32,398 nucleotides of DNA from Stramenopiles sp. TOSAG23-6. Lineage: Eukaryota. The stretch covers positions 1 through 32,398 of the forward strand of contig LT635958.1 of the NCBI GenBank assembly GCA_900128565.1, written 5' to 3'. This document shows, piece by piece, positions 1 to 29,802 of this stretch (position 1 is the first letter of the stretch; each line of letters opens with the position of its first letter). The translations under genes and the position numbers were made by a program. The notes beneath the pieces were generated by a model, which had not been told where the DNA came from, did no database searches, and saw only the letters and a list, made by a program, of their open reading frames with translations.

Positions 1-53
1 GTACAAAATTTCGTACGAAAAAAAAATCAAATTTGAAAAAAAATAAAACATAC
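1..53 (-). other. Family intron #1, truncated by window edge
   Basis: Minus strand AT|GTATGTTTTATTTTTTTTCAAATTTG...TTTCGTACGAAATTTTGTAC, same architecture as the other copies; cut just before the expected CTAAC. Confidence 0.8.
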
Positions 54-1647: not shown

Positions 1648-2919
1648 ATGTCCAAAGAAAGCTCCAATGAAGTACTGCTTTCTAAAGTTATACCAAAGCC
1701 AACGTTTAGTGTACCAATTGATATTTTATGTATGGCTGCCATGGATAAAACTTGTGACTTCAAACCAATGAAGCTTCAACGGCGACCAATGAAAGAGTCG
1801 GACGTCGTTATCGATATGAAATTTTGTGGTGTTTGTCATTCCGACCTCCACAATGCTGCAAATGATATAACAATTCTAGGAGGTTGTAAATATCCAATTG
1901 TTCCAGGTCATGAACTGGCTGGTGTATGTATTGCAGTTGGTTCTAAAGTCACAAAATTTAAGGTTGGTGATCATGTAGGAGTAGGCTGTTTAGTAGATAG
2001 TTGTTTGAGTTGTAAAGCTTGCAACCGTGGAGAGGAACAAAAGTGCAAAAAATGTGTAAGTACATACCAAGGGCAAGATAATGGTAGTGGTCGGGCTCAA
2101 ACTTATCCTGAAAATGGAATGACACTTGGAGGATATAGTACTACTATGGTTGTTAATGAACACTTTGCGATTAAAATTCCCAAAGAATATCCTCTCGAAT
2201 TTGCAGGCCCAGTAATGTGTGCAGGGGTAACAATGTATGATCCATTACGCAGGCAAAATGCAGGGAGAGGAACACGTGTTGGTATTGTCGGTTTAGGTGG
2301 ACTTGGTCAGATGGGTGTCTCCATAGCAAAAGTGATGGGTTGTTTTGTTACTGTTATTTCTAGATCACAAGCAAAATCGACTTTTGCAGAGGAACTAGGA
2401 GCTCATAATTTTTTGCTTTCTACTTCATTGGAAGGTATGAAACGTTCCAGAAAGTCACTAGATATTATCTTGAATACAATACCGGTTGCTCATGATTATA
2501 ATATATATAAACAATTGCTTGCAACAGGTGGAAAACAAGTTTTACTAGGACTTCATCCAGCTTTAGCTGCTGCGATGATAGTTGACCAAATTACTTGTCA
2601 CCATTCAAAGGTAATTGCTTCAGGCATTGGTGGTATTGAATGTACTCAGGAAGTCATGAATTTATGCAATGATCATAAGATATACCCACAGATTGAGGTA
2701 TTTCCAGTGGAGGAGTTAAATAGAGTTTTCGAAGCTCTTGACGCAAGTAATGCTACTGGTACAAGATATGTAATGGACATTGCTGGAACTTTGAACAGTG
2801 ACGCATTTAGTCGTTGTAACGCACCTCCTCCAATCTTAGAGGAAAACCGTTCAACTTTTGGTATATGCAACAGCTGTTTTGCATGTTGTCAAATGTTTTG
2901 GTGCTGTAAGTGGTGTTAA
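1648..2919 (+). CDS. Zn-dependent medium-chain alcohol dehydrogenase (cinnamyl-alcohol dehydrogenase/YahK-like) with Cys-rich C-terminal tail
   Basis: CGVCHSD, GHE, structural Zn CLSCKAC-x7-C, PVMCAGVT, Rossmann GLGGLG. Confidence 0.93.
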   Translation: MSKESSNEVLLSKVIPKPTFSVPIDILCMAAMDKTCDFKPMKLQRRPMKESDVVIDMKFCGVCHSDLHNAANDITILGGCKYPIVPGHELAGVCIAVGSKVTKFKVGDHVGVGCLVDSCLSCKACNRGEEQKCKKCVSTYQGQDNGSGRAQTYPENGMTLGGYSTTMVVNEHFAIKIPKEYPLEFAGPVMCAGVTMYDPLRRQNAGRGTRVGIVGLGGLGQMGVSIAKVMGCFVTVISRSQAKSTFAEELGAHNFLLSTSLEGMKRSRKSLDIILNTIPVAHDYNIYKQLLATGGKQVLLGLHPALAAAMIVDQITCHHSKVIASGIGGIECTQEVMNLCNDHKIYPQIEVFPVEELNRVFEALDASNATGTRYVMDIAGTLNSDAFSRCNAPPPILEENRSTFGICNSCFACCQMFWCCKWC

Positions 2920-5398: not shown

Positions 5399-8035
5399 AT
5401 GAATAAGTCTTTTGCGATGAACTATATCACAGTTATATATGTTGTTTATGTAAATGTTTTAACAAAGTATGGAGTTTGTTCTGCTGAAGGAACACAGACA
5501 ATGTCATCTTCATTTGGTGCAGCACAACCAACAAAGATAACAAAAGGGATTGGACACAACCAATACAATACCCTCCCACCATCTCATGCACCGAACTTGT
5601 CAGGTTATTATCCGCAAACTCACCAATACACGAATTATCCAAATTATCAGAGTATGCCTCCTCCTACATATTACAACAGTGGAGGGCATCAACCACGAGC
5701 TCACCAGTATCATAAAGTACCTCAATATGGAAATAATGGACAACCCCCGCCGAGTAGTCTCCCAAATCATCATGCATATTCATATCCTCCGTATAATACT
5801 GGTCAAAGTTATATTCCTACTTCTTCTTATGAAAACCAAATATATTCAAATCAACAGCAAATGCACTCCTTTCAGAGCCCTGGTTCACCTCCTATGGGAT
5901 TTATCGACCCAGGAGATGCACCACCAGGTCCACAACGGGAAACGCGTCGTAATGAACGTCTTACAAGATGGTTAGAGCAAAATAGTATTCCTGGACATAA
6001 TCTTGAATTAACAACATTTTCTGGAGCCTTACCAAATACTCAGTACAGAGGTATGAAAACAAAAGTTGATGTTAAAGCTGGAGACGTATTGCTTCAAATA
6101 CCAAAAAGTGTTTTACTTTCTGAAGTTACAGCTAAATCATCTGGTCCAGAGGAAATCCAAATTCTATTTAAAGAACTTAGTAACTCTGGATCTGTGCCGG
6201 GTAAGGTACTATTAGCTTTGCACTTGCTTCGTGAATATTTTGACAGCCAATCTAAATGGGCCCCGTGGCTTCGAACTTTACCATCTCAAGCTGGAAATTT
6301 ATTATATTTTTCTGATGCTGAAATAACTGAAATGCAATGCCCTTCTGATGGATGTCCTGTTCTTGAAAAAGCACGCTCTGTTCGTATAGAATTATACAAA
6401 GTCTGGGAGACAATGAAACCTGTAATGGAGAAAGTGAATTTAATACCTAAAGGTCATTTTTCATACGAAAATTTTCAGTGGGCTTATTTGACAGTTACTA
6501 GTAGAGTATTTTCAATACGTGTTAATGATCGTTATGGTTATGGTTTAGTTGATGGAAATAAAGATAACTTTGGGACGTATTACATTGCTGCACCTTTTGC
6601 TGATATGGTAAATCACCATAATACTGAACCAGCAATACAATTTACATATGGATATAATGACAAAACGAATATGATTGAATTATTTGCTGATCAAGATTAT
6701 ACCGCTGGGCAAGAAGTATATATCTCATATGGTATTCTTACAAATCCTGATTTATTATTAAATTATGGATTTGTCTTGCGTGATAATTTATTTGAAAGTG
6801 TTGCATTGCGCATGGAAATTGATCACCAAACTCCTTTTTTTCATATGAAGAAAGCATTACTCATGTATGTTTTATTTTATTTTTTCAATTTCGAATTTAT
6901 TTTTCGTACGAGATTTTGTACCTAACGAATTTTAGTTTTTTTTTTTTGAAATATTTTTACAAAATACATTCATCACGAGTTGGTTTTCGATGAGTCAAAG
7001 AAAACATCAAATAATTCTACGATACAAAATACACAAAATACAAAAGAAAATGGTAATAAGGCTTCATATGAAGATCCAGTGATAAAAAAACGTCCAAATT
7101 CGATTGATTTTCTTACGACACAGATAAATTTAGTGGGTGATGCTTCTCAGCAGTTTATAACAGCATTACGTATTAAATCGTTTACACCAAAACCTGAAGA
7201 TATTGTAGCATTTAATTCTGTAAACAATACTATTGATGAAATATACCCAAGAAATACATCAAAATTGATGAATAATTCTACATTACCTATCTTCCCCATT
7301 TTGCCTGAGATATTTCCAGAAAACCCTTTGAGTGCAACAAATGAATTTGAAGTATATAATGGATTACTCATTAATCTTGAACAACTTCTTGGAGTATATC
7401 CAACAACATTACAACAAGATGTAGAAATATCACGAAAAGCATCTTCATATTTTACAAGTAATCCAAGATTAGCATCAGCACTTGTGATGCGAATTGAAGT
7501 AAAACGTATATTACATGCTGCATTGTTACAATGTTTCATTGGTATTAAAACTGCATTTGATTTAATATCGAAAGAACAACGACATCGTGCGTCTTCTTCG
7601 GTTGAACATGATATGTGGAAGCACTGGGATGATGGGATGAAAACATGGTTAATTCAGTGGGAAAATTGGCAACAGGATATTGATACTGTTTGGGGTAAAA
7701 ATGAATCAATGAGAACACATATGGATCGTACATTCAATTTTACTGATATTTTGGATAGTGCTGGCGATCAACGGATTGAAAATATGATACATGATGGAAT
7801 TGCGTTGGGTGCAACAGAGTCAAATGATAAGAATTTCAATAAAGTGAAGGAGATTCCTAAAAGTTATGGTAATGAGAATAATCAGGAATCAAAATCACAG
7901 CCTATGACAATTGGTCAATTATTAGCCAAATCTCAAGCTGTCATTGCTGCAGCAAATCAAAAGAAAGGAAGCAAAGTTGATGCTGAAATCGCAACTCAGA
8001 AGATGATGGAAAACATAATTCAAAGTCTGATTTGA
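5399..8035 (+). CDS. SET-domain methyltransferase (SETD3/Rubisco-LSMT-like); exons 5399-6864 and 6970-8035, start codon uncertain
   Basis: YRGM, SKWAPWLRTLP, FQWAYLTVTSRVF, PFADMVNH, EVYISYG, LLLNYGFV. The second ORF is in the same frame and has an LSMT substrate-binding-like YPTTLQQD segment. Confidence 0.85.
6865..6969 (+). other. Family intron #2 (105 nt, GT...CAT; equivalently AT...AC at 6863-6967)
   Basis: AT|GTATGT...TTTCGTACGAGATTTTGTACCTAAC...ATATTTTTACAAAATACAT|T. Contains the in-frame stop; removal gives KALL-I-HHELVF. Confidence 0.75.
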
Positions 8036-11888: not shown

Positions 11889-12750
11889 TCAATCCATACG
11901 ACCTTTTAATTCGCGTGTTATAACTTGTGTAGGAGTAATAATATGAACATATGCACCCCAACCACTGAGAGCGTCACGGTCAACAGCTGCGAGTAAAGAT
12001 TGTGATAAAGTTTCGAATAGTTCATCCTCATTCATATCCTTTCTAAAAAGACTTTCACAGGTACCATATAGATTATCTGCACATGTACCTGCAACAACAA
12101 AATCGTCAGTAACAACGGGTGCGCCAATTAAATCCATAGCACAAAGATAAGGTACATTGTTTTCATCGAGACCGGCAACCACTGGCTCAATGAACCAAGG
12201 ACCAAATCTCTTCTCATATAGCATATTAGAAAGCAAATGTGAGAACGTTTTTGGTTTCATTGAACGATCTTCACGCAATTCATACCTATACTGAAATAAT
12301 ATAACAAAATGCAATTATGTATGAGTCTTTATATTGTAGGGAGAGTTTATGAAGTGTACACTGGAGTTGGGGAAAGAAAACACGAAAGTAAATCCTATTG
12401 ACAACATGTTATACAAAGAAACTTATAGGCTCGGAATACTTTTTAAAGCCAACACTGGATATGAAACATAATAACACACAATTAATATACTTAAATCAAA
12501 TATATAGGGAAAAGCTTATACATACAACTTACATTTTCATACGAAAGTCAAGTTTTTCACTCATTGTCTGTACATCAGTAGCGAGACCACTGAGACCCAC
12601 TACAAGTTTGTCGTTCATTTCAAAAACACGATTGAAATTACAGCTCACTGTCTGAGCACTAGCTCCCAAGCGTCTATCAGTTGCAATACCAACACAATTC
12701 TTGCCAGCCATGGCAATCACGGCACTGCCATTGTATTCGAGAATAGACAT
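11889..12750 (-). CDS. PSMB3: Proteasome subunit beta type-3; exons 12750-12533 and 12285-11889 (204 aa)
   Basis: MSILEYNGSAVIAMAGKNCVGIA...GLSGLATDVQT; YEKRFGPWFIEPVVAGL; DRDALSGWG; C-terminal LKGRMD. Confidence 0.97.
12286..12532 (-). other. Canonical GT-AG intron (247 nt), no family motif
   Basis: AT|GTAAGT...TATAG|G restores FRMKMYELRE. Confidence 0.93.
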
Positions 12751-14363: not shown

Positions 14364-16256
14364 TTAATTTTGAGAACCTGGCACATTATCTCTATCTTGC
14401 TCATCATTTACTGCTTCATTAGCTGCAAACAATGCAGCATTCAAAGCATTATTAAGTACAGCATCATCATCACATTTTGATATCGTCGATTTTGCGTCAC
14501 AATTTAAAACAGCATTTAAATAATTATTAATTATAGCATCATCATTACATTTTGATATCGTCGATTTTGCGTCACAATTTGAAACAGCATTTAAATCATT
14601 ATTAATTATAGCATCATCATTACATTTTGATATTGTCGATTTTGCGTCACAATTTGAAACAGCATTTAAATCATTATTAATTATAGCACCATCATTACAT
14701 TTTGATATTGTCGATTTTGCGTTACAATTTGAAACAGCATTTAGAGCAGCTTGCAATCCACTTAATATAGCATCATCATTTTTCTTCTTTTCCTTCTTTA
14801 TGTTATTCATACGAATAAAATTTGATAACTTTTGTTTCATCATCTGATCGGACGAATGCTTAATGACGCTTTTTGTTTTTAATACATCTTCATTTTGAAC
14901 TTCAGTGTTTGCAACATACCAATCTCTGACACGTGTCATATCCACAATACCTTGTGCATTGCTGAGATTTTCCAAATTGTACTCCTTTGAAATTCTGTCT
15001 TTTGCCTGTTTTGAACACTTTCGAGAGCTACGACGTGTTCCTTCTTTCGGTATTTTCGGTATTTTCGATAATTTTGATTTTTTCGGTATTTTTGATTTTG
15101 CTGTCCTTGTTTTACCTTTTACACTTGATTTTTTTCCTTTAGAAAAACTTTCAGAATTATTTAATTCCTGTGTATCAAATATTTGTTTCTCTGAAAAATA
15201 TCGTATTTTATCTTTCTCAGCTAATTCAACTGCGAAGGCTTTCTCAGCATTTGTTGAATTTTTCCATAAATTCGCTAAATCTCGTGTCAACTCAGAGAAT
15301 TTTTTTTGGGGATTAGATTTTTTTAATTCTTTACGATGATGATTACTAAAGTAAATATATGCTGTAATTGCACGTTTTGGTCCTTTTTTTTTTGATTTTC
15401 TCAATTTTGTTGTTTTCTTCAATTTTTTTTTCTTTGATTTTACTCTCACAACCTTTGGTTTTGTTGTTCCTTTGCGCTTCTTCATATTTACCTTCGGCAT
15501 TAAAGTCACTCTCTTTTGTTTCTTCCTGACTGCTTTTTTTATTAATGTACCAAGAACAGTTTCTGAATGGTTTTGTGTTACAATTTGTTTTTTTTGTTTT
15601 TTTTGTTTCTTTGTGATAGGAAAATTTCCACTTGTTAAAAGCTTTCGCTTTGGAAAACTTTTCATTGATTTAGTAGGCACTGGCGTACTTTGAGACGGCA
15701 CAGTTGTTGTATTAGAAGTATTCATTGTAACAATAGGTGTTGACGTACTTTGAGACGGTACAGTTGTTGTATTAGAAGTCTTCACTGTAATTGTAGTCGA
15801 TGTAATATCCCGAGATTTCTGATTTTTAAGAGAAAAATGTAAACTATCAGAATTTGAGACCATTGTGCTACTACATCCCATAACATTTACTTTCGAGGCT
15901 GGAGTTGTGCCAATTGCTGGTGGTAGAAATATTGCAGAAGACTTCATTGTTTTAGTCGTTGACGGTGCTGGTATTTTCTTCGTTGCAATCGCAGTCATTC
16001 TTACAGGAATACAAGGTAAACTCATTTTTTTTGGTAAAATTGAGAGGTTCTTTACGTGTACCAGTGATTCTTTNTTGTTTTTTGTTTCTTGTATACAAAC
16101 ATTTTTGGATTGTTGCAGGGTCTGTCGTTTCTTGCGGGTGTGACGACACGGGTTGATTCTACATTTACACGTCTTTGTGGTTGAAATTGGATTCGGTAAT
16201 ACGAGACTTTCAGGAAGTTTCTTTTGTTCAGAATGTGTTTTTGATACTTGAATCAT
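14364..16256 (-). CDS. Lys-rich HMG-box protein with C-terminal tandem repeats; start uncertain
   Basis: GPKRAITAYIYFSNHHRKELKKSNP...FSELTRDLANLWK...AEKDKIRY is an HMG box. First in-frame ATG at 16256. Confidence 0.82.
   Translation of the reverse strand: MIQVSKTHSEQKKLPESLVLPNPISTTKTCKCRINPCRHTRKKRQTLQQSKNVCIQETKNXKESLVHVKNLSILPKKMSLPCIPVRMTAIATKKIPAPSTTKTMKSSAIFLPPAIGTTPASKVNVMGCSSTMVSNSDSLHFSLKNQKSRDITSTTITVKTSNTTTVPSQSTSTPIVTMNTSNTTTVPSQSTPVPTKSMKSFPKRKLLTSGNFPITKKQKKQKKQIVTQNHSETVLGTLIKKAVRKKQKRVTLMPKVNMKKRKGTTKPKVVRVKSKKKKLKKTTKLRKSKKKGPKRAITAYIYFSNHHRKELKKSNPQKKFSELTRDLANLWKNSTNAEKAFAVELAEKDKIRYFSEKQIFDTQELNNSESFSKGKKSSVKGKTRTAKSKIPKKSKLSKIPKIPKEGTRRSSRKCSKQAKDRISKEYNLENLSNAQGIVDMTRVRDWYVANTEVQNEDVLKTKSVIKHSSDQMMKQKLSNFIRMNNIKKEKKKNDDAILSGLQAALNAVSNCNAKSTISKCNDGAIINNDLNAVSNCDAKSTISKCNDDAIINNDLNAVSNCDAKSTISKCNDDAIINNYLNAVLNCDAKSTISKCDDDAVLNNALNAALFAANEAVNDEQDRDNVPGSQN
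14442..14741 (-). repeat. 4 x 75-nt coding tandem repeat (NAVSNCDAKSTISKCNDDAIINNDL)
   Basis: Near-identical units at 75-nt spacing. Confidence 0.93.
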
Positions 16257-16464: not shown

Positions 16465-17328
16465 CTACTTCTTTTTTTTCTTTTTTTTTTGCCATGGTAA
16501 CATCTGTGCTACTCCATATGGATTCTCGTAGTAACCTACAGGCTTTTGACCATGCCTATACAATGCTGGGTTTATACCTGGAACGGGGTCAACAGTTGTC
16601 GTTTCCCACGTATTGTGAAAAATATTTGAAATTTAAAATTCGTTAGGTACAAACTTTCATACCAAAAAACAAAAATTAAATTTGAAAATGATGAAAATGA
16701 AAACGAACATTCATCCGTCTCAATTGGTTGAGCATTTGACCGACCTCCTATTACCCAAGGAATTGAATGCACTGGAATATCTTCTCCATTTGGTTCATAA
16801 AACGGATGATGCATTGACATATCCTGCCCAGTATCCCACGGATTCCGATTTTTAAGTGAATTATGTTGTAACATCAAATCAACTCTATTTGATCCATCGT
16901 AAAGAGCAGCTCCACCAACCATTTTCTGAGGAAATCTTTGATAAAACGGCTTGAATGATTCGACAGCTTTTGCAACTTGTTCTGGAGTTTCATCTAATCG
17001 TTGCACTGTCATGAACTTGTTTTTTGAATCTCCGTCATTTTTTGCATCTCCCAAGGGAAGAGGTATTCCTGCGGGGACTTCTGGCCATTCTAAACCCTCC
17101 ATTGAACCCCGTTTTACGCGGGTATCACTAATTCCCTTGTACCTGATATGTGTAAAAGCGTATGATTGAATATTCCAACAATAAATGAATGGATAAAAAA
17201 ATAAAAGAAGTCGTTTTCAGAAAAGTAAACTGGTAAACATACATCCAGCTTCTTGTATCAAATGGAGTTTCGCCAAGTATAAATAAAGTGTTGTTCAGAG
17301 CGAATAGCAAGAAAATATATAAGTTCAT
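16465..17328 (-). CDS. Three-exon hypothetical protein with signal-peptide-like N-terminus and poly-Lys C-terminus; exons 17328-17243, 17142-16709, 16607-16465
   Basis: Joined reading MNLYIFLLFAL...SWM|YKGISDTR...MEGLEWP...IETDE|WETTTVDPVPGINPALY...WQKKKKKKK*. Confidence 0.65.
16608..16708 (-). other. Family intron #3 (101 nt; GT...CGT, or AT...AC at 16710-16610)
   Basis: AT|GTTCGTTTTC...TTTGTACCTAAC...ATATTTTTCACAATACGT|GG; end is 35 nt from the branch A. An in-frame CAG about 30 nt further on is an alternative acceptor. Confidence 0.65.
17143..17242 (-). other. Canonical GT-AG intron (100 nt), no family motif
   Basis: AT|GTATGT...ATATCAG|G; phase 2 on both sides. Confidence 0.8.
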
Positions 17329-17881: not shown

Positions 17882-18148
17882 TGATTATGAGAAAGAAAAA
17901 AAAAAGAACTACTGCTCCATGAGTACTTTTTTTGTAGCGCAACAATTATAGTACTAGTATATCAAAAGTCGAACCATACTTTATTAGTGTACGGAATCAA
18001 AAAATAAATATTTATATAAATATGATTTTGTTATAATTCTTTATAATAGAGCAAAAAATCTTTATGCTGCTACCTCAACACACAAAAAAAANGACGNCAA
18101 AAANGTTTTNAANATTCAAAACAACTCATTTCAAGTATAGCTTTTACA

Positions 18149-21100
18149 CTAGATGAGTTTTCCACCTGCAAACATTGGTGACACTAATTCCAGCAAATCG
18201 CCACAAGGTAGACCACGATTGAGTCTACTTTTAGCTATTTTACACCAAATACGCCCTTTTGTTGGGTTAGCTTCTTCACATTTCGTTTTTACAGTAAGTG
18301 CCAATGCTTCGGCAGCTGCTTTTGTATCCTCACTTACAGCATCTTCTACTTGTTCTCTTTCGAACTGATAATATTGGGCCCAAGAGTCACCACAATTTTT
18401 ATCCAACAAAACTGCACGATTTAACCACTTTCGCGCTTTTCTAACTTTAGCGGGTTTGTATTTCCAGAATAATCGAGCAACAGCCAAAACAACTTCGACA
18501 TTCGACGAACCGCAACTCCGAAGAGCGTCTGCACTTCTTGATTTCTGTTGTTGCTTTGGTGTCATATCGATTTCAGTCGCCCAGAGTATACCAGATTTTG
18601 GACACTTTTGCAAAGCACGTGACATTAGCTTCTCTGCTAATTTTTTTTGCACGTTACTGACACTAGTATTCATAGATTGTATTGGTGTTTTAGTTATATT
18701 TGATCCATTTGGTTTGCCTTGTAATTCTAAGCGAATAGCAGCTAACCAAATAGCAGGCGATTGTGGTAACTTTAGCCTCGCAACTTCTAAAAGAGATCGA
18801 GTTTTCGTTAATGAACTAACACTTTTCTCTAATGAAGTGGCTAATAACCATAATTCAACAGATTTTGGAAATTTTGCTAAACCTTTGTGATATGTCTCTT
18901 TAGCACGACGAATCCATTTTAGATTTTTTTCATTTGACATTTGTTTCTGTCCACAAGAAAGTGAATGTTTTTCTTCATACAATTGACCCAACATCATCCA
19001 CAACTTCGCCTCTTCATCCGGAAATTTACCAAGTGCTGCTAAAAGTAACTTTTCTTCTGCATCGAGACAGGATTGTGACCATTCCAAAAGAGCTGACTTC
19101 ATCCATACTCTTGGAGTTGAATTTATTCTATTTCTTGCTTGTGAAAGTAAAGATCTTGCAGCTTCTACAGATCCTGAACTCTGTTTTAATTTTGCTGATG
19201 CGAGTAGGAGAGCCTCAGAATCGATGTGTTTCATTGCATTTTCTAATAAAATTTCTGCTGCTTCAATATCATCAAATTCTTCCCATGTATGTTTTGCTGC
19301 CATTAACCAGAATGTTTCGCATTTAGGTACACTTGATAATGCTTTCTGATATAAATTTTTCAAAGTGTATTTTGTACCATATCTTTTTTCAAATTCAACT
19401 AAATTAAACCATAGTTTCTCTTTTGAATGGTACACAGAGACGACCTTATCGTAAATAGCACGAGCGACTGCAATATTACCAGCTTTCTCTGCAGCAGTCG
19501 CTTCATCACACCATGTACGATATCTAGTGCCATCAATTATTCCAATTTCAAGACATTCTTTAGCAATTGCTGTAGCCGTATATGGAGCACCAGCTCTTTC
19601 AGCTGCAGATGCTTCTTTAAGCCATTGCTCTCTGCTTAAACTAACATCATTTGCTTCCAGTGATTTTCTAGCAAGTGAAATTATTCTTTCACATATACTT
19701 TTGATTGATGCTTCAGAGTTTTCATCGTCATTTTTTGAGTTCGCTTCCTCTAATCGTGATGCTGCAATCCAAATACGAACATCGGTAGGTACTGATAAAC
19801 GTGCTTTATTTAATACCCTCTTTGCATTATCATATGATTCTAAACGAGCTAATGCTAACCATAAATCCACAGCAGAAGGAACACATTCAACAGCACGACC
19901 AAGCATAACACGAGCATCTTCAGGCTCTTCAAGAGCCACAGCAGCCTTCCAAAGACGCACAGAATGAGGTAAAAATTCCAGAGACTTTCTCAAAACTCTT
20001 CGCTTTGCTGATGGCTTTGATTCTAATTCAGATGCACGCTCCCAAATTCGTACAGATAAAGGAAGTGAACGTACCGCATTCGCTAAAATAATTTTAGCAT
20101 TTGCATTATTCTCCATCGCAGCAGATTCTAACCACACATCTTCAGACTCTGGACACGAGACACATCCGCTTCGTATGACATTCCGTGCAGCAACCATTTT
20201 ACCTGCTGCTAATTCAAGTCTAGCATATGCAATCCATCCAGCAGGTTCTTTAGGATTAGTCTTTGTAACAGACTGTAATAAAAGTCTACCTTTTTTAATA
20301 TCAGCCATTTCACTCATTGAATTCACTTTTTGTGAATTTAAATCAGTGAGATAACCTTTTGGATCGACGACTGTCTGACCAGAGACAGAGTCAGACATCT
20401 TCTGTAATTTTCTACTCAATAATTGTTCACGAGCCTGTGCTAATTGACCACCCACCTGTAACACAGAATTACCACCACTTTGCGTCATTGGTGTTTTAAA
20501 ACCTCCAATAGGAGTCTGAAAACCTCCATATTTTTGCTGCCTTGGATCAATAAATGTTTGTTTGTTATCTGATGGTATACCCATAGTTAGAATATTGTCG
20601 GGGACAGGATATGAGACAGGTGTTATCTTTGCTTGCTTCCTCTTTAAAGAACGATCGCCAATTTCTGGAATGGCTTCCCATTCTTCGTTGCTAATCTGTT
20701 TTAAATCTTTTTTGAGATCAGCAAATTGATCTTCAATTCGTGGACGCTCTATACGGCGTTTCTTTTGTATTTCGTTTTCACGTGCTTCATTGCGAACTTT
20801 ACGTCGTTTCTCCATATGTTGGTCAACAGCCTTGTATATAGCATCTGCTTCTTTATCTTCAGTTTCGTATGGAGAATCACTAAATAAACTATGACTAAAA
20901 CCCGACTCTTTATCAAAATTTGACTCTGAAAAATCTTTCTCTCGTTCTCCATTTTCTAATTTATCCTTTCCAAAGTTACCTACTGTACCAGAACCACGAC
21001 CAGCACCTCCACGATACCCATCAGGAGCTTGACCAAAATCTGTTCGGCCTACTGCAGCAGATCCACCAACACCAAGACCCCCAAGTCCTTTCTCCCTTTC

Positions 21101-21361
21101 TTTCTTCGCAAAGGCCATCTTTGCTTGCTTTTCTGCAATCAAATCTGAGATTTCCGCACATTCGCGTTTAAACTTTTCAGTACCAAAAGAAGCGTTTAAA
21201 AATTCAGTACCCTCGTGTACATTATATCCTGCAGGACCTATATCAGCGCTTGTAGTAAACCCAAGAGCACCACGTCCAAGACCAGGAACATATCTTTTTG
21301 GCTTCAACGCTTCCTTCGCAAATGTTTTGGGGTTTCGACTAAATGCGGCACTCCCATTCAT
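18149..21361 (-). CDS. PRPF6: Pre-mRNA processing factor 6 (U5/tri-snRNP HAT-repeat protein), intronless
   Basis: YVPGLGRGALGFTTSADIGPA, FADLKKDL, WEAIPEIGD, DSVSGQTVVDPKGYLTDL, DIKKGRLLLQSVTKTNP, HAT repeats. ATG at 21361. Confidence 0.97.
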   Translation of the reverse strand: MNGSAAFSRNPKTFAKEALKPKRYVPGLGRGALGFTTSADIGPAGYNVHEGTEFLNASFGTEKFKRECAEISDLIAEKQAKMAFAKKEREKGLGGLGVGGSAAVGRTDFGQAPDGYRGGAGRGSGTVGNFGKDKLENGEREKDFSESNFDKESGFSHSLFSDSPYETEDKEADAIYKAVDQHMEKRRKVRNEARENEIQKKRRIERPRIEDQFADLKKDLKQISNEEWEAIPEIGDRSLKRKQAKITPVSYPVPDNILTMGIPSDNKQTFIDPRQQKYGGFQTPIGGFKTPMTQSGGNSVLQVGGQLAQAREQLLSRKLQKMSDSVSGQTVVDPKGYLTDLNSQKVNSMSEMADIKKGRLLLQSVTKTNPKEPAGWIAYARLELAAGKMVAARNVIRSGCVSCPESEDVWLESAAMENNANAKIILANAVRSLPLSVRIWERASELESKPSAKRRVLRKSLEFLPHSVRLWKAAVALEEPEDARVMLGRAVECVPSAVDLWLALARLESYDNAKRVLNKARLSVPTDVRIWIAASRLEEANSKNDDENSEASIKSICERIISLARKSLEANDVSLSREQWLKEASAAERAGAPYTATAIAKECLEIGIIDGTRYRTWCDEATAAEKAGNIAVARAIYDKVVSVYHSKEKLWFNLVEFEKRYGTKYTLKNLYQKALSSVPKCETFWLMAAKHTWEEFDDIEAAEILLENAMKHIDSEALLLASAKLKQSSGSVEAARSLLSQARNRINSTPRVWMKSALLEWSQSCLDAEEKLLLAALGKFPDEEAKLWMMLGQLYEEKHSLSCGQKQMSNEKNLKWIRRAKETYHKGLAKFPKSVELWLLATSLEKSVSSLTKTRSLLEVARLKLPQSPAIWLAAIRLELQGKPNGSNITKTPIQSMNTSVSNVQKKLAEKLMSRALQKCPKSGILWATEIDMTPKQQQKSRSADALRSCGSSNVEVVLAVARLFWKYKPAKVRKARKWLNRAVLLDKNCGDSWAQYYQFEREQVEDAVSEDTKAAAEALALTVKTKCEEANPTKGRIWCKIAKSRLNRGLPCGDLLELVSPMFAGGKLI

Positions 21362-21589
21362 ACTGCCTATATTTGTATAAAGTATAGAAAAAAAAAGACT
21401 CAAAACCTGGCTCAAAAGAAGACCTCGTTTATATACGGCTTTAGGTAGATGTATAGAGTGCGTCTCTCTCTGTTCGCGTTGCGTGTCACTTTTGAACGTC
21501 AATTTCGAATTTGTTATTAGCCCTAACCCTAGCTACTAGAAAGTGATGTGTAAATACTAAAAAATCTTAATATCAAAAATCTTTATTAT

Positions 21590-24500
21590 TCAACAAGGAG
21601 AACATTTCCTTAATTTTAAATCTACAATACAAACTCTCCTAAATCCAGCATGACAAAGAATTTGAAGCAGTAACATCGCATCCTCTACGCATGTTGAAAC
21701 GACACATATCAATGAACTTTGTAATTCTAAAATACTCATATGGTTAGATTTAGAATTTGAAGACGTTTTACTTTGCATTGTTTTAGGGTTAGGGTTAGTC
21801 GTAATACAGTATTCAGAATTTACAAATTGACTAATTACTCCAAGGCAAGCATTAGAACATCTTTGTTGGTCATCTACATTTAAATTTCTAGCATTTGCTG
21901 ATAACCAAGGTAAACATTCCTTTTCTACTTCTTGTATTGATGAATGAGTGATGAAAAATATTTTAAATTTTAAATCGATTAGGTATGGAATTACTTTCTT
22001 TGTAAAATATTTAAGTAAAAAATTAATTTTGAAACGTACATACAAACTACGAATACATATATGAATAGTTCGAGTTGAAACTGGTGTAATATAACTACAA
22101 AATTCAGTGTGCATGGATTATGAAAAATATTTCAAAAATTAAAATCGTTAGGTACGAAATTTCGTACGAAACAAAAATAAATTCGAAATTGAAATTGAAA
22201 TTGAAATTGAAATTGAAAACGTACATTCTATGTAACGAATTGAAATCTGTAATAAATTCATTACTTGAGTTTTTTTTCATAAATGATTTCCTACAAAATT
22301 TAGTACAAAATTCATCATACTCTTTGAAATTATTAGTCTCATCATTTTGTATATCATTTTGTATATCATTTTGTATATTTTGAGGAATTTTGAAGAATTC
22401 GCTACAATTTATCAAAATACATGATTCTTTCCATAATAAGTCTTCATGTAAAACATTCATAGGAATAAATGGAACATGTACAGTGAAAAAATATTTTAAA
22501 AAATAATTTTTGTTAGGTACAAAATTTCGTACGAAAATAAAAACAAAATTTGAAAAAAAATGAAAACGTACATTCAATGAAGGGAAGCAAATTTCATTTA
22601 CCCATGACTTCCAAATACGAAAATTTTGTATATCGAAAATAGTTTCATTGAAAATTTCATTACTTTTACTGTGTCGTTCTTGTAAATATGATACAATTTT
22701 GGTAACACGCATTGAAAATAAAGCACGTGGAGTATTAGATAACATTCTTAATGATAGTGTTAAACTTCTTTGCACATTTAGACGAGTTACAAAATCATTG
22801 AATAGATCATCACTTTGATGTGAAATTGATACAGAATGTGTTTGAAAACTTGACATTTCTATATTTGTATGATCCTTTTTTTTTGAAACATATTGATCAT
22901 CTACAATCTCAATATTTTCTACTTCATCTATATCATCGTTAAATCTTACAGTATTTATGACTTTATCAGGCAAATCATTACAACTATTACTAGTAGTAAG
23001 ATTGTCTGTACAGTTTTCATAGTCAACACATCCTTGATTAAGTTTTGAAATAAAAGTCATAACACCACTGAAATCAAGTTTCATGATTTGTTCTTTCTTT
23101 TCAATAAGAAGGGAGACACCAAGAAAAAGTACATGTATTGTGAAAAAAACACGAAATTATGAAAAAAAATTGTTAGGTACGAAATTTGGTACAAAACATA
23201 CGTAAATTAATAAATTCATGATGAAAAAAGTACATGATCAGGTTCGGTGGCAAGTAACATATCCCAAACTAAAACTAATTCTCGAACCCAAAACACATCT
23301 GAGACTGTCTTGTAGAAAAATATATATATTTTTTACATATTAGGTACGCGACGAAATTTGATATTAGGGTTAGGGTTTTAAAAAAAAATTAACCACTACT
23401 CATTTGAACAACAATACATTTGAAATTGATGATTTCAAAAACGTACATAAAGTCACAACCCAAGAAATTGCATATAATTCTGGTACAATTTCTAATTTCT
23501 GAAGGTAATTTGATAATTCTGGATCCCAGAAATGTAATATAGTAGCAAATAAGTCTAATCGTTTTATAAGAAAATTTGCTCCGTGTTCTCCTGGAAGACA
23601 ATAATCTGGTATATATTGTTCTAATAGTGATGAGAGGCATATAGAAGCAAAATGAATCCTTATGTTTTTGTGATGTATATTTTGTTTCAAATCATCGAAA
23701 GCAAAGTTTTCTTTTTTCTTCATCAAAACTTTTTCAGGATTACTTTTTAATTCTTCATTGCCTTCTACAGTATAATCATCGCTCATAAATACATGTAAAA
23801 ATAATGCTGCAATCGAATCAAATCCTTGATGATATTCTAAATTTGGATATCTTTTTGACCATTTTAATAATACATTGTGTATAGCATCAACAGATTCATT
23901 TGAAGTTAAACCATAAATTAATCCAGATTGTGCAAATCTATTTCTTTCAGAATCTACTTGAAGTAGTCCTAGGTCTGAACAATGAGAAACTTCATTTTTT
24001 TCAGTTATTAATTCATCATTGATTTGGTTGTTTCTATTTGTAGCATCACTAATATTATCATTCAAACGAAGCAGTGCAACCCAGATTTTGTAGCGATATT
24101 GTTGAGAAACTCGAAATACTTCCAAACGTCCAAACTCTTGTCGTTTCTCTACTCTAGGCTGAACTCTCAATAATTTAAGAAATTCGTCAATATACTTGAG
24201 GTCAATTTCCGAATACGCAACACCTGTGACGGCGTCATGTTTCTTTGACAAAACTATTCCTTTCGATACACAAAATCTCATGAGAACTTCATCAACGAGT
24301 ACATCAATATAATCACGATGATTCAATTTATTCTGGCGAGAATTGAGAATTTCTAAAGGATAAGGGGAACCTTGTATTCCACCGGATTCAACAGAACCAA
24401 CTTTTGAACCCATTGTGATACGACGAAATGCAACTTGTGAACTTGACTGGGAAGCAACAGCATCTCTAGACGGTGTTGAGGATTGAATTACAACTCGTGA

Positions 24501-24653
24501 TAGTAGTGGTTGGCGCACACGGGTCAACTCAAGTAGGTTCTGTTGACGAAACCTTTGAAGACGTTTAAGTTTTGCAATATAAAACAAGGCACCAACGAGT
24601 ACAATCACAATTGACGCAATAAGCACCAAGTGGATGTTCCAGATCTCAGGCAT
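21590..24653 (-). CDS. N-terminal TM + TBC (Rab-GAP) + rhodanese-like protein, TBCK-like without kinase; 6 exons: 24653-23447, 23304-23234, 23132-22572, 22475-22225, 22112-22040, 21943-21590
   Basis: VDSER (R finger), YHQGFDSIA (Q finger), DPELSNYL...PELYAISWVVTLFSDVF...VWDMLL...LFLGVSLL after splicing; C-terminal AGFRRVCIVD is rhodanese-like. Confidence 0.8.
21944..22039 (-). other. Family intron #4 (96 nt, GT...CAT)
   Basis: AT|GTACGTTTC...ATACCTAATCG...ATATTTTTCATCACTCAT|; 35 nt from branch A. The first three downstream AGs are out of frame. Confidence 0.65.
22113..22224 (-). other. Family intron #5 (112 nt, GT...CAT), with (TTTCAA)n microsatellite
   Basis: AT|GTACGT...TTTCGTACGAAATTTCGTACCTAAC...ATATTTTTCATAATCCAT|G; 35 nt from branch A. 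An in-frame TAG at 22095 is an alternative acceptor. Confidence 0.65.
22476..22571 (-). other. Family intron #6 (96 nt, GT...CAT)
   Basis: AT|GTACGT...TTTCGTACGAAATTTTGTACCTAAC...TTTTTTCACTGTACAT|GTT; the next two AGs are out of frame. Confidence 0.75.
23133..23233 (-). other. Family intron #7 (101 nt, GT...CAT)
   Basis: CAT|GTACTTTTTT...TTTCGTACCTAAC...TTTTCACAATACAT|GTACTTTTTC; removal restores the TBC C-terminal helix. Confidence 0.82.
23305..23446 (-). other. Family intron #8 (142 nt, GT...CAG), with telomere-like insert
   Basis: AT|GTACGT...CGTACCTAAT...ATATTTTTCTACAAGACAG|; restores WVVTLFSDVF; 35 nt from branch A. Confidence 0.85.
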
Positions 24654-27310: not shown

Positions 27311-27624
27311 ATCAAATTGTATTTCAATTTTTTGTAAGTCATAATACATATCATACTACTGAGGAAAAAGTATATTATCTGAAATAAAATAATTTTGGAA
27401 CAAACCTGCTCTGCATAAAGAAGTGAAAGGAATAAAAAAATTTGAATTCATTTTTTGAAATCGTATTTTTTGTAGCGCTTGTTGTTTGTGTTACAAGAAA
27501 CTGATAAAGAATTTCGTTGCTCTTCTTTTTCAAATATTAAACTACTGTGAATTGACATAACTGTTACCCACATACTACATTGTTAACTCAAACAAACTCA
27601 AATACACAATAGCATCAAAACAAC

Positions 27625-29802
27625 ATGTTTCATTTAACGACTTTGATCATGACTACTTCCCTGTTTACGTTCGCTTACTCCACGAAAACTTCTGAACAGC
27701 GAAGACTCCGGGTTTCAGACATTGCTTATCCAAACAGTGAATTTATCAACGAGGATACGAATCAACTTGGAGTAATGTCGCGCCAGCAGCAGCCCACACA
27801 CATATCAACAAAACGTCTCACTTTTAGTCCTTTTAGTACGTCTCCTAGATTTCGTACAACAATGACAGCAGCAACTCGTGAAAGAAATACTTTCCCTCCC
27901 GAATTGTTTCAAGCATTAAACGAACTCTCTAACGCAAAGAAGAACCAGAAGCTGCTCTCTTCAAACACACAAGTGGGAGATCCTTTAAATCCAACCGATG
28001 GTGCAGCCGCAATGGATAAGAAAGATCCTGTGACATTGATACCTAGCATTGACGTCGAAACACCCAAGAATATCGAAGACAAGACAGACAAGGCTATCAT
28101 TGATGAAAAGAAATTGAATGAAACTCAGAGGAACGGGCTTGCAGAACAATTGCAAATCAATGTGACCCGTGCTGCAGCAATTAAAAAGGCCGCAGATGAA
28201 ATTCAAACATCCAACGAAAACACATTTGCTAAATTTACAGCACTGACACCAGTAGCAACGCCACCTGCAACAACAGTACCAGTGGAAACAAAACTAGTAG
28301 CAACGCCATCAGTACCGACAACACCGACAACACCAGTACCTTCAACACCAGTAATAGTGCCGCCAGTACCTTCAACACCAGTAACAGTGCCACCTGTAAC
28401 AACACCTGTACAAACAACACCTGTACAAACAACACCTGTACCAACAACAACAACGCCTGTAACAACACCTGTACAAACAACACCTGTAACACTTCCACCT
28501 GTACCAACAACACCTGAAGAAACGCCACCAGTAACAATAAAACCAATAACAACACCACCTGAAACTACACCAGTAGCAAAATCATCAGTGACTGTAATTG
28601 GAGATAATATTGACCCTGATCAAGTACTTCAAAATTTGCGTGTAAAAATTGATGGCTGTAACAAACGATTACAAGAAACTGAATCAAGACTTCCGTCAAA
28701 AGAAAATGCAGAAAATGCCGATAAATTTCAGCATTGGAAAGAAGATACACTGGGAAATGCTTTTGACTGTGCTGAGAAAAAGTTAAGGACTCAAATAAAA
28801 AAAGATGTAGCTCTTTGCCATAAGTCTGCCGAACAGGAACGAATAGCATCTGAAAATGATAAAGCTCGTTTAGAAGATCTTGAAAAGGCAATTAATACAC
28901 ATTCTGAAAATATTGATACTGCATTAAGTCAATTAAGTGAAGTTGAGGATAAATTTTCTTCAATAATCAATGAGGGAAAAGAAGCAAAATTAAGACTCTC
29001 AAAGTGTCGTGCTGATTTGATCACTTTATTTGAGTGGAAAGCTAAGTCTCTGGGAGAAACATTGAGTGGTGTCAAAGAAGATGGGGTAAAAGAATCAGTA
29101 GAATCAGAAACCTCTGCATTGACTGAAAATGTAGTCAAAGAAGATGGGGTAAAAGAATCAGTAGAATCAGAAACCTCTACATTGACTGAAAATGTAGTCA
29201 AAGAAGATGGGATAAAAACATCAGTAGAATCAGAAACCTCTGCATTGACTGAAAATGTACTCAAAGAAGATGGGATAAAAACATCGGTAGAAGAAAAAAC
29301 TCCAATTGAAAATACTACAAAAAAAACTCCAGACATAAAAGACAAAAATGTAAATGACAGCGATAAAAACAGAAGAGATAAGGAAATATATGAGGGAGAA
29401 AAACAAAAAGTCAAAGAGAGAATCGAAGAAAATGATCCTAAAACAAAGACTGGTGTGAAATTTGATAAAATTACGCGAGAAGTTGAAGAACTATTACCAC
29501 AACCTGGAAATCCTGAAGTAGATCAAAATACAAAAATACTGCTCGAAAATGTGTTGAAAAGTATTGAAGATCTTGCAACTCATTATAATGAACAAATTTT
29601 GGATGATGATCCTGAAACAGTTCTATCAAAATTAAGATCAAAAACTGACAAAATGATTGCCGAATTTGATCAAACGTATAAAAATCAAACTCATATTATG
29701 ACTCCAAAAGAACATGATTTAGTGATTGAAGAATTGAAGCAAAAAGCAGACCAAATAAACCAAAGTGTTGCAGATCGTATAGCTGATGGTGATTTTGATT
29801 AA
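27625..29802 (+). CDS. Putative secreted protein with Pro/Thr/Val mucin-like tract, coiled coil and acidic repeats
   Basis: 725-aa ORF with hydrophobic N-terminus, TTPV repeats at about 28246-28575, and 21-aa repeats. Confidence 0.8.
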   Translation: MFHLTTLIMTTSLFTFAYSTKTSEQRRLRVSDIAYPNSEFINEDTNQLGVMSRQQQPTHISTKRLTFSPFSTSPRFRTTMTAATRERNTFPPELFQALNELSNAKKNQKLLSSNTQVGDPLNPTDGAAAMDKKDPVTLIPSIDVETPKNIEDKTDKAIIDEKKLNETQRNGLAEQLQINVTRAAAIKKAADEIQTSNENTFAKFTALTPVATPPATTVPVETKLVATPSVPTTPTTPVPSTPVIVPPVPSTPVTVPPVTTPVQTTPVQTTPVPTTTTPVTTPVQTTPVTLPPVPTTPEETPPVTIKPITTPPETTPVAKSSVTVIGDNIDPDQVLQNLRVKIDGCNKRLQETESRLPSKENAENADKFQHWKEDTLGNAFDCAEKKLRTQIKKDVALCHKSAEQERIASENDKARLEDLEKAINTHSENIDTALSQLSEVEDKFSSIINEGKEAKLRLSKCRADLITLFEWKAKSLGETLSGVKEDGVKESVESETSALTENVVKEDGVKESVESETSTLTENVVKEDGIKTSVESETSALTENVLKEDGIKTSVEEKTPIENTTKKTPDIKDKNVNDSDKNRRDKEIYEGEKQKVKERIEENDPKTKTGVKFDKITREVEELLPQPGNPEVDQNTKILLENVLKSIEDLATHYNEQILDDDPETVLSKLRSKTDKMIAEFDQTYKNQTHIMTPKEHDLVIEELKQKADQINQSVADRIADGDFD
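29071..29293 (+). repeat. About 3.5 x 63-nt coding repeat (VKEDGVKESVESETSALTENV)
   Basis: Units start at 29071, 29134, 29197 and 29260. Confidence 0.92.

Follow-up and report, generated by a model that had tools for sequence, protein, structure and literature searches.

A candidate introner-like intron family with CAU 3′ ends in a stramenopile genome

A terminal AG is the nearly universal ending of introns, and few signals in eukaryotic gene expression vary as little. Introners, with which the elements considered here can be compared, are spliceosomal introns that derive from transposons and form families of nearly identical copies (Gozashti et al., 2022; PMC9860276), and passages of the same study report that some introner families carry neither terminal inverted repeats nor target duplications. 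Here we examine a stretch of 32,398 nucleotides (nt) from Stramenopiles sp. TOSAG23-6 (GenBank assembly GCA_900128565.1, contig LT635958.1, positions 1 to 32,398 of the forward strand; hereafter "the window"), in which a gene for a TBC-domain protein is interrupted by a 101-nt insert that we call intron C. Removal of these 101 nt is required by the protein, no AG can give it, and the 3′ motif on which the insert ends recurs in a family of look-alike introns (A to H in the window and one more in a marine metagenome contig, L001). Judging from sequence, we hold it probable, at odds of roughly two in three, that the insert is a spliceosomal intron, removed at CAU instead of YAG, and that it belongs to a homogeneous family of introner-like elements confined to one lineage.

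The resemblance to introners extends to several features described in passages of that study, i.e., look-alike, short, AT-rich introns that interrupt unrelated genes in an aquatic microbe and have splice sites at or near short direct repeats (PMC9860276). The family departs from them chiefly at its 3′ end: whereas the introners in those passages keep a GY/AG core and vary at the 5′ site only (GC, GA), most 3′ ends here are AT (PMC9860276). A further difference is that in the window the family shows no extragenic copies, its ends are not clearly inverted, and target duplications do not occur consistently.

A second point of comparison is yeast (Saccharomyces cerevisiae) without Prp18, where, as passages of one study report, non-YAG 3′ sites are activated, CAU is among the two most efficient non-G sites, and one CAU site was confirmed by reverse transcription polymerase chain reaction (PMC10711555). 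The same passages describe non-YAG use as favoured by an upstream poly(U) and by possible contacts with the first intron nucleotide (PMC10711555). The family shares with this system the CAU trinucleotide itself and its context, a T-run and then CAT, and because Prp18-less yeast uses CAU, a mechanism for splicing at CAU is plausible. The difference lies in status, for the mutant products are described there as minor and error-like, whereas here CAU would be the normal site of a natural family and would preserve the protein.

Among marine protists, the available passages on Amoebophrya introner elements and on the non-conventional introns of euglenids and diplonemids describe direct repeats that overlap the intron borders and complementary intron ends (PMC7789003; PMC12621601), both of which recur here. 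By the same accounts, however, these introns have no conserved terminal dinucleotides and carry inverted repeats of 8–20 nt, those of Amoebophrya and diplonemids depending on extensive pairing of their ends, whereas this family keeps a strict GTAYGT and a branch box, and its ends pair over 6 nt in some members.

Full-text literature searches turned up no account of a lineage or an introner family whose introns have GT..AT or CAU 3′ ends; the supplementary tables of introner papers could list some. Irimia and Roy are said to have described strict, uniform intron signals in intron-poor picoeukaryotes and yeasts. As in such organisms, the genome here is compact and intron-poor, the 5′ site is strong, and the branch box keeps within a narrow range of distances to the 3′ end; the family differs in that likeness spans the whole intron (75–86%) and the 3′ end is not AG.

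The insert in the TBC gene and its splice models

The TBC gene lies on the minus strand. Its first exon, counted from the first ATG (23447..24653), encodes an N-terminal hydrophobic stretch and RabGAP-TBC profile positions 1–183 of 216 (Pfam score 74.2 bits, curated cut-off 25.2). By alignment with homologues, the remaining part of the domain comes from exon 2 (71 nt, 23234..23304, ending in FSDVFWVRELVLVWDMLLATEPDH) and from the start of exon 3 (22572..23132), which opens with the conserved helix VLFLGVSLLIEKKEQIM. Between these two exons stands intron C (23133..23233), which starts with GTACTT, ends in ACAT and is free of AG; its coordinates, length and letters are all as the first-pass annotation of this DNA had them. 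On the coding strand the insert reads ...GATCAT/GTACTTTTTTCATC...CACAATACAT/GTACTTTTTCTTGG..., and its removal yields WDMLLATEPDH/VLFLGVSLLIEKKEQIMKLDF (i.e., ...EPDH/VLFLGVSLLIEK...). Its core (23172..23192, minus strand) is a half-palindrome and the box TACCTAAC (23179..23172), followed by T-runs, with the putative branch A located 40 nt from the 3′ end.

The insert cannot be read through, as that annotation had also held: the unspliced frame meets a stop five codons after the donor. The first AG past the branch box (23098-23097, minus strand) lies 36 nt beyond the insert and is in frame, and its use removes VLFLGVSLLIEK, i.e., 12 conserved residues. Both splice models were compared with 90 distant homologues, obtained by using the TBC part of exon 1 as query in a full HMMER scan (best E-value 2.6e-10; the searched protein collections held no close relatives). 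The product spliced at CAT scored higher than that spliced at AG against 71 of these, equal against four and lower, by at most 1.9 bits, against 15. The gain had a median of 11.65 bits and reached 30.6 bits with homologue P0017 (92.8 vs. 62.2), and the alignments to P0017 and P0010 run without gaps across both junctions. Against a profile of the 70 homologues that continue for 70 residues or more beyond the point where exon 1 ends (query excluded), the CAT model scored 136.8 bits, gap-free, and the AG model 101.3 bits with a 12-column deletion.

A scan of all junctions with donors from 23275 to 23205 and acceptors from 23185 to 23060 yielded 1880 pairs that keep the frame and contain no stop, with 1051 distinct products among them. 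Removal of the 101 nt scored 136.9 bits and ranked third of the 1051, 0.6 bits under the top, and the two products above it are likewise 101-nt removals, shifted to just outside a direct repeat that flanks the insert. The first-AG model reached 106.5 bits (rank 469), and the best AG-ending junction 113.9 bits, 23 bits under the 101-nt removal. Every junction that keeps the helix is non-AG, and no AG occurs between the donor and 23098. Because of these homologue, profile and junction-scan scores, we conclude that the conserved helix after the insert is coding and that no AG junction can supply it. The claims that the first AG, while in frame, deletes a core TBC helix and that the helix depends on the CAT junction were supported at the protein level, and the AG model aligned no better overall with the TBC homologues.

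One alternative at this point is an ordinary GT..AG intron that uses 23098-23097, with a protein short of 12 residues or with both products made. That AG leaves 330 open codons, in frame, yet its use would cost 12 TBC profile columns, or about 30–35 bits, against the preference of 71 of the 90 homologues for CAT; we return to this reading with the rest of the family.

On either side of the insert stands the same 12-nt sequence, which reads CATGTACTTTTT on the coding strand and forms an exact direct repeat whose copies are spaced 101 nt apart. The upstream copy (23225..23236, minus strand) spans the 5′ junction and is followed by a stop three codons later; the downstream copy (23124..23135, minus strand) spans the 3′ junction and encodes HVLF. 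Because this repeat flanks the insert, 13 cut registers give an identical mRNA, GT..AT (23233..23133) and AT..AC (23235..23135) among them, and none of the 13 ends in AG. The first-pass annotation had put the junction at CAT: the non-AG end holds, whereas the unique position does not, CAT being one of 13 equal registers. The donor GTACTT itself sits in the upstream copy and is off the family consensus, and the consensus GTATGTTTT lies 30 nt inside the insert. The repeat and the displaced donor may record how intron C arose, via a staggered break or a target duplication.

Two further alternatives draw on this repeat. In one, nothing is spliced, and the insert is bridged either by excision at the DNA level between the two copies (pointer-like) or by a ribosome hop from one to the other (translational bypass); the exact repeat and the stop three codons past its upstream copy suit both routes, and both would give the same protein. 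We consider this very improbable. The 12-nt repeat occurs in C only, and the other members share 2–5 nt, as expected from the AT/G consensus; moreover, all members have a 5′ splice motif and a branch box, all eight in the window lie sense in genes, the genetic code is standard, and other genes run uninterrupted. In the other, a mobile member inserted recently with a 12-bp target duplication and broke the gene, leaving a null allele or pseudogene that splicing does not rescue. The likeness of the repeat to a target-site duplication would suit such an event, as would a donor in the repeat, off consensus, with the consensus GTATGTTTT well inside the insert. Yet the gene stays open for 838 codons over five family junctions, the helix past the insert is well conserved, and the 3′ motif of the family coincides precisely with the end of the insert, in the required phase; we give a broken allele very little credence.

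TBCK proteins combine a kinase, a TBC and a rhodanese domain, and the top long homologues of the window protein (P0017, P0014, P0007 and P0012) have just this architecture (Pkinase + RabGAP-TBC + Rhodanese), with the TBC domain aligning gap-free. The window gene differs in having no kinase domain, RabGAP-TBC being the sole Pfam domain of exon 1 and the N-terminus a hydrophobic stretch, and in giving no rhodanese match in its last exons; the homologues of TBCK architecture are also distant. On its predicted domains, the window protein is a TBC protein for which TBCK orthology is unsupported, so that the likeness to TBCK proposed in the first-pass annotation stands for the TBC domain. In the frame of exon 1, LQVDSER occurs at residue 245 and YHQ at residue 288. 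They correspond to IxxDxxR and YxQ, which we take to be the catalytic arginine and glutamine fingers, and the protein is thereby predicted to carry both.

The intron family and its 3′ ends

Intron C had been singled out as the best single case for a non-AG acceptor. At the level of the protein its non-AG end stands, but far from being isolated it belongs to a family. The core motif GTACGAAATTTYGTACCTAAC has seven matches in the window at up to three mismatches, where none is expected; five are sense and two are reverse-strand echoes of the palindrome. A profile built from A to F also detects G, H and the intron in L001, bringing the family to eight members in four window genes and one in L001, so that the sample consists of nine sequences, related to one another, of which eight come from a single 32-kb window and the ninth from a single contig. 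Six of them (A, C, D, E, F and L001) share 75–86% of positions, with alignment scores of 47.5–59.5 against shuffle means of 16–17 (standard deviation 3); B and H are more distant (26–27.5 against 13–15). All eight window members lie in genes in sense orientation, and no intergenic or antisense copy occurs in the 32-kb window. A search with the 21-nt core returned no viral contig, one metagenome contig (L001) and no prokaryote genome contig. Loci matching looser motifs (35 + 21 viral, 80 genome) are chance matches, none of which fits the family profile.

The family has a common anatomy: an exonic AT, GTAYGTTTT, a short palindrome that runs into TACCTAAC, a T-run, and CAYAAUMCAT at the cut. The box TACCTAAC, which probably acts as the branch point, is present in A, C, D, E, F and L001, with the variant ACCTAAT in B and H. 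The distance from branch A to the 3′ end is 35–44 nt in the seven non-AG members and 65 nt in B. Among the eight complete members, the 3′ end is AT in six (A, C, D, E, H and L001), GT in one (F) and AG in one (B), and position -3 is C in all eight. A G-to-T sequencing error at the acceptor is an unlikely source of this ending, which is the same in six members. Within intron C the 3′ module is doubled (23137-23168), as TTTTTTTCATAAT and TTTTTTTCACAAT, 19 nt apart; the L001 intron has the same doubled module and, over its 3′ half, hardly differs from C.

Intron A (105 nt, 6865..6969, plus strand, ending in ACAT) provides a case in a second gene, SETD3-like, where it lies between a SET part and a Rubis-subs-bind part. 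The former (Pfam SET) aligns with SETD3 chains to residue 357, and the latter is recognised at an E-value of 2.7e-7. Because the open reading frames (ORFs) of the two parts share a frame with stops between them, intron A must be removed, and in phase; none of the AGs near it gives an in-phase removal. Intron F (101 nt, 16608..16708, minus strand) starts with GTTCGT and ends in ACGT. Were the cut to fall one base sooner, behind ACG, the reading frame would shift and the protein would stop within a few codons; this protein has no Pfam match. ACG is a type of site used by prp18-deficient yeast. Intron G (1..53, minus strand) is cut by the window edge, and its 5′ part alone is present, AT/GTATGTTTT up to the core.

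Frames past the junctions bear on whether AG could serve the family. Past the family 3′ end, the frame stays open for 355 codons in A, 342 in C, 123 in D, 174 in E, 47 in F and 47 in L001. Past the first AG it stays open for 19 codons in A, 330 in C (in frame), 9 in D, 168 in E (in frame), 37 in F (in frame) and 4 in L001, and in H the first three downstream AGs are out of frame. From the box to the 3′ end in the seven non-AG members, one AG was seen against 4.47 expected (P = 0.035), a weak signal given that the members are related. For a conventional acceptor in C, then, one can point to the genome's use of AG elsewhere and to the in-frame first AGs of E and F. Set against this, the AG of C lies 76 nt from branch A, as compared with 35–44 nt for the family 3′ ends, and the first AGs of A, D and L001 run into stops within the few codons just given. 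With the loss of the TBC helix, this makes AG use in C quite unlikely in our view.

AG is recognised in the source genome. An intron of 247 nt in a proteasome beta-subunit gene (12286..12532, minus strand) has the ends GT..AG: Pfam positions 3-66 end three residues before its junction and positions 71-189 start right after it, and of the six AGs tried as acceptor this one alone yields the full frame of 204 residues. Alignment against shuffles shows its sequence to be unrelated to the family. Because this intron uses a plain GT..AG, AG recognition is intact in the source genome, and it is to the family itself that the non-AG end belongs. An exonic AT precedes the donor in all nine family members and in the proteasome intron as well. 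All ten donors examined thus follow AT, where AG is usual elsewhere, which suggests a shifted exon-side preference in 5′ site recognition in the source organism.

Intron B (142 nt, 23305..23446, minus strand) bears on the register in which C is cut. It is a divergent member with GT..AG ends, and in the alignment its 3′ ACAG occupies the place where the others have ACAT. Cut as GT..AG (23446..23305), it ranks first of 340 distinct products at 136.9 bits and gives ..TLFSD..; in the AT..AC register it scores 132.8 bits, a loss of 4.1 bits, and gives ..TLVSD... That column holds F in 61 of the 70 homologues, Y in six, C in two, G in one and V in none. By homology with B, GT..AT is probably the register of intron C: if GTAYGT sets the 5′ cut throughout the family, the AG end of B and the aligned ACAG and ACAT would place the 3′ cut of C after CAT.

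The competing register deserves consideration in its own right. With AT..AC (23235..23135), intron and mRNA would be the same, and the intron would belong to an AT-AC class, either U2-type or spliced by a transformed minor spliceosome. An AT repeated at both junctions permits AT..AC in A, C, D and L001 without any change to the mRNA, AC suits F better than AT does (both registers being synonymous for F), and the C found in all eight complete members would become the last position. Passages of a study of marine mirusvirus genomes report some AT-AC introns with a WCTAAC branch consensus (PMC12768974), and these may reflect hosts with such introns, which makes them a lead. U12-type introns, as parts of a Physarum preprint describe them (10.1101/2020.10.12.336362), tolerate non-AG ends including GT-AT, and in this and in the AT..AC register possible for C the family resembles them. 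The preprint gives their 5′ motif as [G/A]TATC[C/T]TTT and their branch as 9–12 nt from the 3′ end. Here, by contrast, that 5′ motif is absent, as intron C reads GTACTTTTT, or ATGTACTTT in the other register, and 40 nt separate the branch A from the 3′ end in C, as against 35–44 nt across the family. The AT..AC register would also leave E and H ending in CC and TC and would put V, at the loss noted above, into a column of B that has none. We therefore judge AT..AC rather unlikely, and keep GT..AT as the favoured register of intron C.

The remainder of the TBC gene and of the window

Downstream of exon 3 the TBC gene continues on the minus strand through three more family introns: D (96 nt, 22476..22571), which ends in ACAT, has a length divisible by three, contains no in-frame stop and has its first downstream AG out of frame; E (112 nt, 22113..22224), which ends in CCAT; and H (96 nt, 21944..22039), a divergent member that ends in TCAT and is likewise divisible by three and free of stops. 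The last exon, with the stop codon, follows at 21590..21943. Joined at B, C, D, E and H, the coding sequence is a single open frame of 838 codons. In local comparison the C-terminal model, with its predicted junctions D, E and H, gave only marginal scores against homologues. Retention of D or H would add 32 residues apiece and leave the frame intact. Five of the eight window family introns (B, C, D, E and H) lie inside this one gene, and far longer neighbours, among them a PRP6-like ORF of 1127 codons (18149-21532), have none.

The window is compact, intron-poor, eukaryotic DNA with a GC content of about 0.36 and long standard-code ORFs on both strands, which rule out a ciliate-type genetic code. 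Its Pfam domains include PRP6-like, PP2C, SET, GDSL, MSP, HMG and proteasome. No Rfam family or tRNA was found in the window, hence no small nuclear RNA there. An ORF of 729 codons (27613-29802, plus strand), to which no family could be assigned, encodes long threonine/proline/valine repeats and tandem acidic units of about 20 residues. Six isolated single N positions occur, at 16074 and within 18092-18113, five of them inside 22 nt, and resemble masked polymorphic or uncertain bases. The telomere-like double unit CCCTAACCCTAA is present twice where none is expected (21783-21794 and 23364-23375, minus strand), once within intron B and once in the last TBC exon, where it codes for NPNP. Units of the AAACCCTAA type, similar to CCCTAACCCTAA, stand in an intergenic stretch of L001 (~2250-2330, minus strand), and both kinds may be a regulatory box or a relic.

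Proposed mechanism and implications

Of the features of a U2-type intron, the insert has a GT donor (GTACTT in C), a CTAAC-like box and a pyrimidine tract; a 3′ AG is absent. Its removal is probably at the RNA level, with the major spliceosome as the likely agent and in the GT..AT register. Under this model a U2-type spliceosome would recognise the conserved AU/GUAYGU 5′ site and the UACCUAAC branch box, situated just past a short palindromic hairpin; a U-run would come next, and the exons would be ligated after a CAU 35–44 nt downstream of the branch A. The CAU site could be set by its distance from the hairpin-flanked branch box together with pairing of the intron ends. A terminal 6-bp helix (AUGUAU/AUACAU) may help to place the 3′ end; this 6-nt complementarity is predicted in three of six folded members (A, C and the centroid fold of D) and is not seen in E, F or H.

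Several observations weigh against this interpretation. A CAU intron leaves the 12-nt repeat of C unexplained, and AG is used in two validated introns (B and that of the proteasome gene), where its recognition has not been lost. Intron F ends in GT rather than AT, and the AT..AC register fits six of eight members (A, B, C, D, F and L001), with the same mRNA for C. In C, E and F the first AG keeps the frame, which its use would therefore not break, and in D and H, both divisible by three and stop-free, removal is not forced. RNA folds are not clearly better than those of shuffles (z +0.45 to -2.55). Word-index searches for transcript-derived proteins with three parts of the TBC gene, i.e., exon 3 (97-310 aa), the exon-1 TBC part (237-755 aa) and the exon-1 end (71-228 aa), gave zero matches. 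Four marine metatranscriptome runs have small shares of words in common with the window (0.07–0.17), which does not bear on expression, splicing or habitat.

On balance, the family is probably a new variant of introner-like spliceosomal introns. More tentatively, at a little under even chances, the source may be an abundant marine picoeukaryote in which a proliferating intron family has CAU as its normal 3′ site, is handled by a major-type spliceosome and exists beside AG introns. If so, the chemistry of the 3′ site would be re-tunable in nature, beyond yeast mutants, and the family would parallel, in nature, the loosened selection of 3′ sites in prp18-deficient yeast, and would also be a system for asking which second-step factors set 3′ fidelity. 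Gene finders, read mappers and introner screens all presuppose a terminal AG. In marine metagenome-assembled eukaryote genomes, genes with such introns would then be systematically mis-annotated, appearing as truncated, as frameshifted or as carriers of AT-AC "minor" introns.

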